A stretch of DNA of 18,298 nt from a virus (taxonomy: Duplodnaviria; Heunggongvirae; Uroviricota; Caudoviricetes). A program made the position numbers. Shown in pieces: positions 6,001-12,000 of the stretch. Location: positions 1 to 18,298 of the IMG/VR virus record IMGVR_UViG_2529292905_000017, one strand, 5' to 3'. The first letter of the stretch is position 1. The number at the start of each line of letters is the position of its first letter.

Positions 6001-9000
6001 GACCCGTCAAATTTTGATGGATCAACTGTTGATAACAAACTGCCGATTAGGGGGGCGATGATTGACCCCGATCCGTCAGTATTAAAACCTGATCCGTCAG
6101 ATAAAAGATCTTCTTGTCCGGACGCTTCGCAACCGGACCCGCAGACGGCTGAACAGAATTTTTTAACCCGACACCCTGACGCGGTTGTGTTCAGTGCGAA
6201 AAAACGCCAGTGGGGAAGTCAGGAAGATTTGGTGTGCGCACAGTGGATCTGGGGACGAATCGTGAGTCTTTACGAGCAGGCGGCCAGCGATGATGGCGAG
6301 ATCACGAGACCGAAAGAACCCAACTGGACTGCATGGGCCAATGACGTGCGGACAATGCGGATGCTGGATGGCAGAACTCACAGACAAATTTGTGAAATGT
6401 TTGGGCGTCTCCAGCGGGATTCGTTCTGGGTAAAAAACATCATGAGTCCGGCAAAACTCCGGGAAAAATGGGATGAACTGGTTATCCGCCTGGGGCGTTC
6501 GCCCGCGCAGCGTTGCGTGAATCACATTTCTGAACCGGACACTGAAATACCGCCGGGATTCAGGGGGTGACGTGTCATGAAAAACATTGCGGCAGTTGGG
6601 GTTCTTGAACGTATTCGCAGACTTGCACCACAGGGGGCGGTTCCACCGTACCGGACGGTGGAGGAGTGGCGGGAATGGCAACTTGCTGAAGGACGAAAAC
6701 GCAGCGAGGAGATTAACCGCCTGAATCATCAGGTGCGGGTTGAAAAAATCCTGAACCGTGCGGGCATCTAGCCGCTTCACAGGAAGTGCTCATTCGGGAA
6801 CTACCGGGTGCAGAACGACGGTCAGCGCCATGCTCTGAGCCAGGCGAAATCCATTGCCGATGAATTGATGACCGGATGTACAAACTTCGTGTTCAGCGGT
6901 AAACCTGGTACCGGTAAAAATCACCTGGCAGCAGCGATTGGCAATCGGCTGATGGCGAAGGGGAGAAGCGTGATTATCGTCACCGTGTCCGATGTCATGA
7001 GCGTGTTGCATGACGGCTACGACAACGGCCAGTCCGGGGAAAAATTTTTACAGGAGCTTTGTGGAGTTGACCTTCTGGTCCTTGATGAAATTGGCATGCA
7101 GCGGGATACGCGCAACGAGCAGGTCACGCTGAACCAGATAGTCGACCGCAGAACGGCTTCGATGCGTAGTGTCGGAATGCTGACGAACCTGAATCACGCA
7201 GCGATGAGCACACTCCTCGGAGATCGGGTGATGGACCGTATGACCATGAATGGTGGTCGTTGGGTGAATTTTAACTGGGAGAGCTGGCGGTCAAACGTTG
7301 GACGTCAGGGTATGTGAGAATTTTTGACGAGGTAAATTTTCGATGGAAACTGTATTGCATGCACTGAAAGCGATGGGAAAAGCCAATTCTGTTGAACTGG
7401 CGGCGCGGCTTGATATCAGCCGTGAAGAAGTTCTTAACGAACTGTGGGAACTCAAAAAAAATGGCGTTGTTGATAAAACGGGTCACACCTGGTTTCTGGC
7501 TGTCGAAGGTGAAGCCGGGGTAACCGAAGGGCAGGCACTACAACCTGAAGCGCCGGATGTGGTAACCGAAGAGGTCGCTCCAAAAGTTACCGCAGACATG
7601 ATGGTTGAGTTTATCGGTCAGGATGGTGCTAAAACGTGTGAGGAACTGGCGGGTAAGTTCGGCGTCAGTACTCGCAAGGTTGCTTCCACGCTGGCGGTGG
7701 TAACCGCAACGGGGCGGCTGGCACGCGTTAATCAGAACGGTAAATTTCGTTACTGCATGTCGGGGGGTAATTTACCAGCAGATCCGAAAGCCGCGCCGGT
7801 AACGAAAAATGATGGTAAGGCCTTTCCTCAGCCAGCAGGTGCTGCGTTACCAGTCCGGGAAGCCGCAACACAGGAAGAAATTAAAACAGAAACTGTGGCG
7901 GACATTGTGCAGCCGTTGCCATCGTTTACCGAAACGCAAGCAGATGAGCTGATTTTTCCGTCCCTGCGCAGGGCAAACCTGGCGCTGCGCAGGGCGAAAA
8001 GTGATGTTCAGAAGTGGGAGCGAGTCTGCGCCGCGCTGCGGGAGCTGAACAAGCACCGGGATATTGTTCGACAGATTACTGATTCTTCCCGCCGTGTTGT
8101 ATCGGAAAAGTGATAGCCGGAGGCGCTTATGGCGAAACCTTTTACACACGAACAGCGTGAAGAACTGAAGGCCCGAATTATCGGGCTGGTACGCAAAAAT
8201 GAACGCATGACGATATCACAACTGGAGAGAGCGACGGGAGCAGGCTGGCATTCAGTCAGACGTTGCCTTGTGGATGTACTGGCTTGTGGCGATTTATACA
8301 TGCCCGGTAAATACGGTGTTTTTACATCAGAACAGGTGTATCGCGTATGGCGTAAGGCTGCGGAGAAAGCAACCGACCAGACATTGATTCGAAAGTTACC
8401 AGACGGAGAAATACGCCGCTACGACAGACAACAGAACATAATCTGTGGCGAGTGCCGGAAGAGTGAAGTTATGCTGCGTGTACTGGCGTTCTATCAGGGC
8501 AATTTTCAGGAGGCGGTACGGGGGTGCGGACGATTTCTTGGACGGTTTATACGGACATCAATCCGACCGCATGACGATACTCGATGGGACTACGCCCGCC
8601 AAGCGACACTTTGATGCGGCGCTCGTTGTACCAGTGGATATAGGCATCGATTCGCGTCATGAGGTCTTTCAGCGTCACGTGCTGCCAATTCCTCGGGTAG
8701 ATTAGTTCGGTCTTCAATCGTCCGAAAAAGCCCTCGCATGCAGCATTGTCTGGCGAGCAGCCCTTTTTGGACATCGACCGCGTTAATTGGGCATTTTCAG
8801 TGCGGCGGATCCACGCAGGCCAGCGATAATGCGAGCCCCTGTCCGAATGGATAACCGGATGCTCACCGGGTCGCAGTGTCCGTACCGCGTGATCCAGCAT
8901 GGTATTGACCAGGTTCGCATCCGGGCTGGTGCCGATATTCCAGGCCACCACCAGCCCATCGAAGCAATCGACGATCGGCGAGACGTAGACCTTCCCTGCC

Positions 9001-12000
9001 GGAATGTGTATTTCCGTCAGATCGGTCAACCATTTCGTATTCGGCGCCGACGCGTGAAAGTCGCGATTCAGCAGATTCGGGACCGCTGGTGTCGGGTCGC
9101 CAGCATACGCCGAGAAGCGCCGGCGGCGCGGTGTTCTCACGACCAGACGCTCTTGCGCCATCAAGCGACGCACGACCTTCTCGGACACACGCATGCCACC
9201 AAGGCGCAAGGCACTATCAATGCGTCGATAGCCATAGCAGCGGTAGTTGTCCTCGAAGATAGTCCGAATGACCTCACGCACCTGCGTGTACTTGTCGGGC
9301 CGCGTCTGCCGCAGGCGTTGATAGAAGTATGTGCTGCGCGCCAGCTTCAGGCCGCACAACAGATTGGCTAATGGAAACGTGACTCTGAGGGCATCAACCA
9401 CCTTCGTTTTTCTCGGCTTGTCAGTTCGAGGGGGTTGATGCCCATGTCTTTTTTTATCAATTCACTCGCCTTCTCCAGAATTGCATTCTCCATGCGAAGC
9501 CGCTGGTTCTGGCTCTCCAGTTCGGCCAGTTCCCTGAGTAGTGCCTCATGCCGCTGCTCGAGCGAGGTGTCACCTTTCTTCTTTGTCATGGGTTTTAGGG
9601 GCACTTTGCCAAGTAATCGATGCTGCCAGTTATACAACGTTGGTCGCGATACACCGACAGTGTCGGCCACATCCTTTGCCGAACCTACGCGCAGGTTCAG
9701 TGCAATGACGGCTTGCTGCTTCTCGAGGCGAGAGCGGGCGACTGTGGGAGCGCTGCTGCCGACGACCGTCCTAGCGAATTCAGGGCGTAAATCACGGATC
9801 CAGGCACGCAAGGCCTCGCGGCTTGGGTAGCCCAGGCTTCGGATTGTGTGACTCAGGCAGTAGCCTTGTTCGATATAGTGATCTACTGCCCGTTGCTTTT
9901 GCTCATCGGTGTACTGCCGTTTTATCCGTTGATAGCCTCGGCGAAGATCCTGATTCCGTTCGAATTCTGCCAACCAGGCCTTCAGCGAGTTCTTGGTGGG
10001 GTATCCCAGCTGCCGTAGTGTGGCGCTCATCCGGCGCCCAAGCTTCAGGTACAACCTCACGGCTCGAAGGCGATCTTCATACGAATACATGAACTACTCC
10101 TAAAGTAGTCCAAGATTTTGTCCGCACCCCAGTATCAGCACGACCCCTGCACCGAAGAACAGGCTGAATGGCTGATTCAGTGTTACCGCAGGCGCGGATG
10201 CGAGGTTAAAAAAGCCCTTAGCCTCGACTACCGTCACTGGATAATCTCCGTCAGGCTCCCTTACTCCGAACGGCCACCGCGTCCGTCCCGCACATTCCAG
10301 CAACGGATCTGGAGGTAATGTGCGGGTATTACTTCGACCTGTTCTGGTACCGGAACTCGGTCTGGTTATCGTTAAGCCAGGCCGTGAATCAATGTCAGCA
10401 TTCCATAACGGCAGAATACTGGTGGAGCCGGAACCAAAAAGCATGCGAGCTCTGCCGTCCGGGGTTGTACCTGCCGTTCACCAGCCGCTGGCGGAAGATA
10501 AATCACTACTGCCATTTTTCAGCGATGAGCGGGTGATCCGTGCTGCGGGTGGCGCTGGTGCACTGTCTGACTGGTTATTACGTCACGTGAAATCCTGCCA
10601 GTGGCTACACGGTGATTATCATCACAGCGAAACCGTCATTCACCGTTACGGTACCGGCGCGATGGTGTTGTGCTGGCACTGCGACAACCAGCTGCGGGAG
10701 CAGACATCTGATTCACTGGATCAACTTGCTCAACAGAATCTGGCCGCCTGGATGATTGACATCATCCGTCACGCAATGAATGGCGCACAGGAGCGTGAAT
10801 TATCTCTGGCTGAATTATCCTGGTGGGCGGTCCGCAATCAGGTGGCGGACGCGCTACCGGAAGCGGTATTACGTCGCTCGCTGGGATTACCAGCGGAAAA
10901 AATCTGCTCGGTGTACCGCGAAAGCGACATCGTACCGGGAGAGCAGACCGCCACCAGCATACTGAAACAGCGCACAAAAAATCTTGCGCCGCTGCCTCAC
11001 GCCCACCAGCAACAGAACCCACCACAGGAAAAGACGGTGGTCAGCATTGCCGTTGATCCTGAGTCTCCGGAATCTTTCATGAAACGACCTAAACGTCGCC
11101 GCTGGGTAAATGAGAAATACACACGCTGGGTAAAGACACAGCCGTGTTCGTGTTGTGGTAAGCCAGCGGACGATCCTCATCATCTGATTGGTCATGGTCA
11201 GGGCGGAATGGGAACAAAATCCCACGATATTTTCACGCTACCGCTGTGTCGGGAGCATCACAACGAGCTTCATGCGGATCCGCTGGCGTTCGAAGAAAAG
11301 CATGGTTCCCAGGTTGATTTAATTTTTCGTTTTCTTGATCACGCCTTTGCAACCGGCGTGCTCGGGTAAAAGAGGTGACTGATGCTCATAGATTTGGTTT
11401 TACCTTACCCGCCGACGGTGAACACCTACTGGCGACGTCGTGGCAGCACATATTTTGTATCAAAAGCCGGTGAGCGTTATCGCCGGGCTGTGGCGCTTAT
11501 TGTTCGCCAGCAGCGGCTGAAATTAAGCCTGTCCGGAAGGCTGGCGATAAAGGTGATTGCAGAGCCACCGGATAAGCGTCGTCGCGACCTGGACAACATT
11601 CTGAAAGCACCGCTGGATGCGCTGACGCATGCGGGAGTGCTCATTGATGACGAGCAGTTTGATGAAATCAATATTGTACGTGGTCAGCCAGTATCTGGTG
11701 GACGGCTGGGTGTGAAGATTTACAAAATTGAGAGTGAGTGAGCGTAAATATGATATATCCGGAAATTACAGGCAAAAGCGGCGAACATTTACGCCTGAAC
11801 ACGCTGGAAGCAGTCTGGATCCAGGGGAAATTACGGATGTGGGGGCGGTGGTCGTATATCGGTGGGGGTAAATCCGGAAATATGTTTAACCGGTTACTGG
11901 TTTCGAAAAAGCTGACGAAAACAGCAGTTAATGAGGTTTTACGCAGAATGAAGAAATCCGGGCTGGAAAAACCGGAACTTGAGGCATTTTTTCGGGATAT

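Follow-up and report, generated by a model that had tools for sequence, protein, structure and literature searches.

Insertion sequences (ISs) of the IS3 family typically end in 5′-TG...CA-3′ within imperfect inverted repeats, usually duplicate 3 bp of the target DNA, and encode a transposase characterized by a DD(35)E triad with a lysine or arginine seven residues after the glutamate. Most members, though not all, have two overlapping open reading frames that are fused by programmed −1 frameshifting. Frameshifting in IS1 and IS3 elements makes the longer product, for which a published survey contrasts them with dnaX; the heptamer A_AAA_AAA has been proven to support the shift in IS600, and IS3 members as a rule have a hairpin 4–10 nt downstream (PMC4066793). 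The IS3-family element IS1353 is described as an insertion into IS1326, which lies in In2 of Tn21/NR1 (PMC5640717, PMC6737455, PMC3796477). Here, a copy of IS1353 is described in an 18,298-nt stretch of DNA, referred to as the window, that spans positions 1 to 18,298 of the viral record IMGVR_UViG_2529292905_000017. The locus is very probably explained by an IS1353 copy at a new site in a prophage, the deletion of 1527 bp of adjacent prophage DNA, and the splitting of the transposase gene by one missing A.

Similar to the IS1353 copy of In2 (Tn21, R100/NR1), the copy in the window has the same ends and no substitutions, and the In2 copy is one base longer with the same transposase apart from the frameshift. 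The main differences are that the In2 copy has an AGT target duplication, a run of six A residues (A6), and a single open reading frame (ORF), whereas the window copy occupies a lambdoid prophage site, has no duplication, is associated with the loss of 1527 bp, and carries a run of five A residues (A5). IS1353 also resembles the classical IS3 members IS911, IS3, IS150, IS2, and IS600 in having a DDE transposase with an N-terminal helix-turn-helix (HTH) region and an A-rich slippery heptamer with a stem-loop at the equivalent place. In the IS1353 clade, in contrast to the classical members, both parts of the transposase are encoded in one frame, so that a slip would shorten the product rather than lengthen it. 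The A5 allele of the window mimics the classical orfA/orfB layout.

The IS1353 copy, its ends, and the adjacent deletion

The element at 8520–10131 on the minus strand is identified as a copy of IS1353, an already known member of the IS3 family. It is 1612 bp long (1613 bp in the reference), and a base-by-base alignment to the R100/Tn21 copy (comparison sequence L001, 3001–4613) shows one indel and no substitutions over 1613 positions. In R100, the match is flanked by istA of IS1326 on one side and by tniB of the In2 tni module on the other, and the same position is occupied in chromosomal Tn21. The name IS1353 is given because this is the In2/IS1326 position reported for it in the literature, and it is based on that position, not on a comparison with ISfinder. 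A megablast search with the element matches 62 Escherichia coli and 227 plasmid records at at least 99% identity (99.9% at full length), with the annotation “IS3 family transposase”. Assignment of the locus to the IS3 family, as made in the initial annotation, is supported by Pfam HTH and rve domains and by the NCBIfam profile NF033516 (transpos_IS3), which scores 408 bits with the reference protein and 324 bits with the downstream ORF of the window (cutoff 160). A scan of GTDB representatives yields just two IS1353 copies, each in an In2 context, and a search of viral contigs found no copy. The element is almost always fixed in In2 of Tn21; the new chromosomal copy, which is oriented opposite to the early-right genes of the phage, documents movement in E. 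coli.

Both IS1353 ends are intact in the window. The left terminal inverted repeat (IRL; 10108–10131, minus strand) begins 5′-TGGGGTGCGGAC, and the right terminal inverted repeat (IRR; 8520–8543, minus strand) ends ...GTCCGCACCCCC-3′, an end set by three independent contexts: In2, pASP-135, and R702. The two imperfect repeats, TGGGGTGCGGACAAAATCTTGGAC and GGGGGTGCGGACGATTTCTTGGAC, are identical at 20 of 24 bases, and the inverted repeats noted initially are therefore real. IRL begins with TG; the opposite end is ...CCCCC, not CA, across all contexts compared. The left boundary had been placed at 8519, one base too far: this base matches the DUF977 gene of IS-free genomes and is missing from all other IS1353 copies, so it belongs to the host and the first base of the IS is 8520. 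Target duplications of IS1353 elsewhere are AGT/AGT in In2 and GGG/GGG for a second copy in the Aeromonas plasmid pASP-135. In the latter, this second copy (L006, 2501–4113) is situated between orf5 (GNAT) and IS1326. An alternative model of the ends, with a 2-bp duplication and a terminal ...CA, was rejected because an element of 1613 bp is directly bordered by the GGG/GGG and AGT/AGT duplications; the base that follows ...CCCCC varies (G, G, G, A) in the window, pASP-135, and R702 contexts.

The IS-free comparator for the insertion site is the same prophage in E. coli fS25a (L003). Window positions 4120–8519 align with L003 1–4401, and window positions 10132–12604 align with L003 5929–8401, both at 99.9% identity, collinear and in the same orientation. 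Between the left prophage/IS junction (8519/8520; L003 position 4401) and the right IS/prophage junction (10131/10132; L003 position 5929), 1527 bp of prophage (L003 4402–5928) are missing from the window. The missing segment contains the last 5 nt of the DUF977 gene, the DUF551 gene, a 34-codon ORF, hokD, and the first 31 codons of a 92-codon ORF. The undeleted span is common, with 382 E. coli genomes, including EDL933, covering at least 80% of a probe across both breakpoints. No genome covers both halves of a query in which the flanks are directly joined, and fS25a matches each half at 100%.

In the orientation of the IS, the flanks in the window read ...TAC| and |GTA..., with no direct repeat. 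The element has no target duplication and replaces 1527 bp of prophage, which amounts to insertion plus adjacent deletion. The 3-bp duplication is lacking because one end of the IS is now joined to DNA formerly 1527 bp away. IS1353 would have inserted at one of two sites in the nin-type region, after which an adjacent deletion mediated by an IS end would have followed; this route is suggested by breakpoints that coincide exactly with the two intact IS ends. The GTA repeats close to both ends had been taken for a target duplication, as would result if the IS had simply inserted, duplicating the 3 bp GTA and leaving the host DNA complete. The left GTA (8516–8518), however, is separated from the IS by host base 8519, and its partner (10132–10134) is native as well: in fS25a, 1527 bp and four genes separate the two triplets, a span that is present in the 382 genomes. 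The likeness to a duplication is coincidental, and a simple insertion of this kind is contradicted by the alignment with fS25a and hardly credible.

Precedents for IS1353 ends without a duplication are found in the IncP plasmid R702 (L007, 4113/4114) and the Klebsiella pneumoniae IncC plasmid p3 (L008, 4113/4114), in which the IRR end adjoins DNA near merE. Similar to the window, an intact IS1353 end abuts unrelated DNA in both plasmids, and the IS629/IEE deletions of enterohemorrhagic E. coli (EHEC) likewise combine an IS3-family element with an adjacent deletion. In R702 and p3, the tni module and urf2 are deleted beside the IS1353 IRR. The 1.5 kb could also have been lost through homologous recombination between two directly oriented IS1353 copies in this prophage or through IEE-assisted aberrant excision, or the join could be an assembly artifact through the repeated IS; in any of these cases, a single IS lacking a duplication would result as well. 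Deletions beside IS3-family elements are associated with these elements in EHEC-type strains, among them IEE-dependent deletions of a few nucleotides to >40 kb (PMC9943667). The rarity of IS1353 outside In2, however, makes two insertions 1.5 kb apart improbable, the IS is retained with both ends intact, and a single prophage accounts for both flanks, collinearly and in one orientation. These alternatives are accordingly quite unlikely as a group, and a deletion mediated by an end of the resident IS1353 is preferred.

The alignment with fS25a, a comparison with an IS-free locus that the initial annotation had proposed, defines the two junctions and also the ancestral C terminus of the upstream DUF977 gene. 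This gene (8129–8614, plus strand) is native up to 8519 (130 codons and 1 nt) and then continues for 31 codons into the IS, yielding a protein of 161 aa with an IS-encoded tail, a gain of 30 residues, compared with the native protein of 131 aa that ends in ...FQEAVL. The 3′ end of the gene has indeed been replaced, as suggested from the window, but only the last codon and the stop codon are lost.

The transposase gene and the missing A

In the reference, the transposase of IS1353 is encoded by one uninterrupted ORF of 1545 nt (514 aa, WP_000287615.1). No join or “programmed frameshift” flag is attached to the coding sequence in R100 or other copies, and our own translation agrees. IS1353 and its relatives, down to 54% identity, have a single transposase of about 509–515 aa. 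Among the best 120 homologues (54–100% identity), lengths range from 446 to 517 aa, with 115 of the 120 between 504 and 517 aa; most of these derive from plain metagenome gene calls. The zero-frame linker KKDxGIxxxxLTNREKTxLVDAL, which crosses the site of the lesion in the window, is conserved at at least 80% in the homologue alignment.

In the window, alignment to R100 places a 1-nt deletion in the A5 run at 9407–9411 (minus strand), where the reference has A6 (GAA AAA ACG). The two-ORF layout arises because this one missing A moves the rest of the gene into the −1 frame. The 5′ part of the gene, called orfA (9368–10090, minus strand; ORF call, Pfam, and translation), has 240 codons, of which 228 are native and 12 are out of frame, and contains the Pfam domains HTH_Tnp_1, HTH_28, and HTH_23. 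The 3′ part, called orfB (8547–9449, minus strand), is in the −1 frame and open from the slippery run described below; the listed ORF of 284 aa starts with GTG at 9401 and contains HTH_21, rve, rve_2, and rve_3. The catalytic residues Asp357, Asp417, and Glu453 (reference numbering), together with Lys460, are all located in this downstream piece, and 35 residues separate Asp417 from Glu453, as read from the translation. Ordinary translation of the window copy would give only an N-terminal DNA-binding fragment, and autonomous activity of the copy would require ribosomes to slip into the −1 frame at the slippery run.

The single-ORF transposase is best regarded as the ancestral state and the orfA/orfB layout as secondary to the 1-nt deletion. 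This bears on several features of the initial annotation. The description of the element as intact does not hold, as one nucleotide of the reference transposase ORF is missing. The two ORFs of 240 and 284 aa and their −1 relationship are present as described; they are due to the deletion and are not the native design. The length of the 240-aa OrfA, remarked upon as unusual, is likewise correct, but the product is the front part of a 514-aa transposase and not a true OrfA. It consists of the first 228 residues of a one-piece transposase, followed by 12 out-of-frame residues, and its length also reflects an N-terminal extension of about 120 aa in the clade: the alignment to the NCBIfam IS3 profile covers only residues 124–506. 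Residues 1–190, within 9368–10090 on the minus strand, read as three successive HTH-like modules. The first two of these modules share the pattern Y-x-x-E-x-x-x-RAV-x-x-Y...LGYP...L-x-AW.

The A5 run could be real or a sequencing error. With a 71-nt probe centered on the run, the A5 allele was not found among 220 plasmid and 61 E. coli records, all of which carry the extra A, and a search of metagenome contigs did not find it. An exact-sequence lookup, in contrast, places the exact 240-aa product in three independent SRA assemblies, SRR28745261, SRR124122, and SRR1427241 (L009, L010, and L011). In the first two, the A5 copies (L009 3960–5571 and L010 3960–5571) are located at the canonical In2/IS1326 site and match the window copy at 100% along all 1612 bp; relative to Tn21, their sole indel across 6.3–8.7 kb is the A-run. 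Since the allele is identical in independent assemblies that show no other indel relative to Tn21, A5 is taken to be a real, rare, and circulating allele. It is not unique to this prophage and may predate the transposition. The A6 run itself (region of L001 3721) is found only in IS1353; the ten relatives (L012–L021) have GAA/GAG AAG ACG/ACA/GCA at this place, with GAG in three, and the slippage-prone run behind the A5 allele would therefore be specific to IS1353.

Several considerations weigh against the proposed history of insertion, adjacent deletion, and frameshift. The missing A falls in a homopolymer, and the window and fS25a also differ at one T7/T8 run and two G-run boundaries (window 4752, 5604, and 7768 compared with L003 634, 1486, and 3650: T7 vs T8, G5T4 vs G6T3, and G6T vs G7). 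That the few differences between window and fS25a cluster at homopolymers suggests homopolymer noise in one of the two assemblies. The window junction is not matched in complete E. coli genomes, metagenome contigs, or viral contigs, nor by a lookup of the exact DUF977–IS fusion protein. In addition, the order of insertion, deletion, and frameshift mutation, as well as the mechanism of the deletion, are inferred and not observable in the sequence, and the activity of the A5 and A6 alleles is predicted. If the missing A were a homopolymer error of the window assembly, the element would be a standard IS1353 with a 514-codon gene, and the adjacent deletion would still be true. Such an error is what the homopolymer differences from fS25a would lead one to suspect, and A5 occurs in none of the 281 complete plasmid or E. 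coli records. The same allele is nevertheless present in three independent SRA assemblies with 100% identity over 1612 bp, two of them without another indel relative to Tn21 over 6.3–8.7 kb, and an assembly error is for this reason considered fairly unlikely. The appropriate annotation of the locus is an IS1353 with a frameshifted transposase, in a prophage that lacks hokD, the DUF551 gene, and the 5′ part of the ORF before DUF968.

A slippery run and hairpin in the IS1353 clade

Upstream of the lesion, the transposase gene of the window contains the slippery run A_AAA_AAA_G in the zero-frame register (9448–9455, minus strand; A at 9449–9455 and G at 9448), read in the upstream ORF as ATA_AAA_AAA_GAC. 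A hairpin (9389–9443, minus strand) starts 5 nt past the run, with arms at 9433–9443 and 9389–9399 and the A5/A6 run in its loop. The lesion is thus within the hairpin loop, 37 nt downstream of the slippery signal, and the −1 frame of the window is open from the slip site.

Conservation of these features was assessed in 11 DNA sequences of the clade (L001, with the signal at 3675–3745, and L012–L021; 54–100% protein identity), each with a single-ORF transposase of 511–515 aa. All 11 keep the slippery run unchanged and in the same codon register. It follows an ATA, GTA, CTA, or TTA codon, such that the third base before it is always A while the amino acid varies, and every lysine codon of the run is AAA (22 of 22). 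Outside the run, the genes of the clade use AAA and AAG about equally or favor AAG, and codons ending in A make up just 11–20%. The 96-nt region around the stem has a folding energy of about −28 kcal/mol (z = −3.3 to −3.7). Across the 11 sequences, 96.7% of the cells of the 11-bp stem are paired, compared with 24–50% when the partner is slid, and compensatory double changes occur at three stem pairs. The arms encode conserved residues (G-I/V-N/D and L/V-V/I-D-A-L), and conservation of the stem is thus partly at the protein level. In the single-ORF elements, ribosomes that slip into the −1 frame would reach a stop 18 codons later in 9 of the 11 sequences, where the TGA lies in the 3′ arm, and 32 codons later in the remaining two. 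An Rfam scan of the IS gave no match to a frameshift element or any other RNA family.

Taken together, the A7G run and the hairpin have the anatomy of a programmed −1 frameshift site that is conserved in the clade; frameshifting itself is predicted. The A7G motif of the initial annotation is therefore present, in register as an X_XXY_YYZ heptamer of the zero frame, and conserved in 11 of 11, but the role assumed for it would be reversed in the normal element. In a native IS3-type design, orfA and orfB would be fused by programmed −1 frameshifting at A7G, in keeping with a heptamer in the right register, a stable hairpin 5 nt downstream, and a −1 frame that is open into orfB. Such a design is very improbable, as the reference IS1353 and all sampled relatives have a single ORF, a slip would replace a linker that is conserved in the zero frame, and the layout depends on one base that is missing in very few copies.

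The arrangement in the single-ORF elements is reminiscent of E. coli dnaX, which encodes tau and gamma. In both, a lysine-codon heptamer and a downstream hairpin lie within a long ORF and the −1 frame stops soon, after 18 codons in IS1353. Unlike dnaX, no conserved Shine-Dalgarno-like stimulator is seen upstream in the clade sequences, and the truncated product is only predicted. In normal IS1353, a −1 slip would yield a truncated N-terminal protein of 232 aa; on the A5 allele, it would instead produce a transposase of the full 514 aa, in which 11 residues within 215–227 are altered. Tentatively, the IS1353 clade might operate in a “dnaX mode”, in which the zero frame gives the full transposase and the −1 frame a DNA-binding protein of about 232 aa, probably a regulator, and the A5 deletion might flip the element into the classical IS3 mode, with OrfA as the default product and the transposase made only upon slippage. 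The presence of A5 at both the ancestral In2 site and the prophage site hints that the flipped form may still be mobile. As an alternative role, the hairpin could make translation pause and thereby favor action of the transposase in cis, a possibility considered for IS911 (PMC5009743). No specific account of a dnaX-like frameshift in IS3 members with one ORF emerged from searches of the literature. If the signal works, it would represent an inverted use of the classic IS3 frameshift in which a one-base change converts the modes, a natural example of recoding architectures interconverting. The element itself is ordinary and known, and the conserved slippery site and hairpin in a single-ORF IS3 clade are a modest lead.

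The host prophage

The host of the IS is a cryptic, stx-negative lambdoid prophage of E. coli, with the IS in the early-right (nin-type) region. The left part of the prophage arm comprises an integrase N terminus, an exonuclease, a RelE/ParE–RelB pair, regulator genes, YdaT, an O-like HTH protein, and a P-like ATPase with an internal stop. These are followed in the middle by DUF1627, DUF977, IS1353, DUF968, RusA, and a Q-like DUF1133 protein, and in the right part by a DNA methylase, tRNA-Met, tRNA-Arg, an insert without stx, a nanS-type esterase, and a holin.

Directly downstream of the IS, a remnant at 10133–10318 (plus strand) represents the last 61 codons of the 92-codon prophage ORF that adjoins the DUF968 gene. 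The deletion took away the start of this ORF and the sequence before it. The DUF968 gene (10320–11369, plus strand) is the first intact gene downstream and begins 188 bp past the end of the IS, in agreement with the initial estimate of about 190 bp. The accompanying suggestion of an effect on the nin region and Q is possible, but the region gives no signal above chance: a promoter/terminator scan of 8000–10500 finds no promoters and two weak terminator-like sites, compared with 2.2 expected. An effect of the IS on expression of DUF968, rusA, or Q is thus conjecture, and no claim of polarity or of an outward promoter is supported.

The P-like ATP-binding replication gene (6577–7317, plus strand) is interrupted by an internal stop into ORFs at 6577–6771 and 6808–7317, and the same defect is annotated in fS25a. 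Because this defect is common to fS25a, the prophage was probably replication-defective already before the IS arrived. In Stx phages, the slot between the Q-like gene and methylase on one side and the nanS-type esterase on the other holds stx; in the window, this slot (13973–15718) contains tRNA-Met, tRNA-Arg, and a stretch of about 1.5 kb that lacks stx. An anti-adapter protein is annotated in that slot in related phages and probably corresponds to the ORF at 15138–15473 (minus strand). In the immunity-proximal region, a RelE/ParE-family toxin and a RelB antitoxin form a pair at 3901–4372 (minus strand). Prophages of this type have two toxin–antitoxin loci, RelE/ParE–RelB and hokD, the second of which is deleted here.

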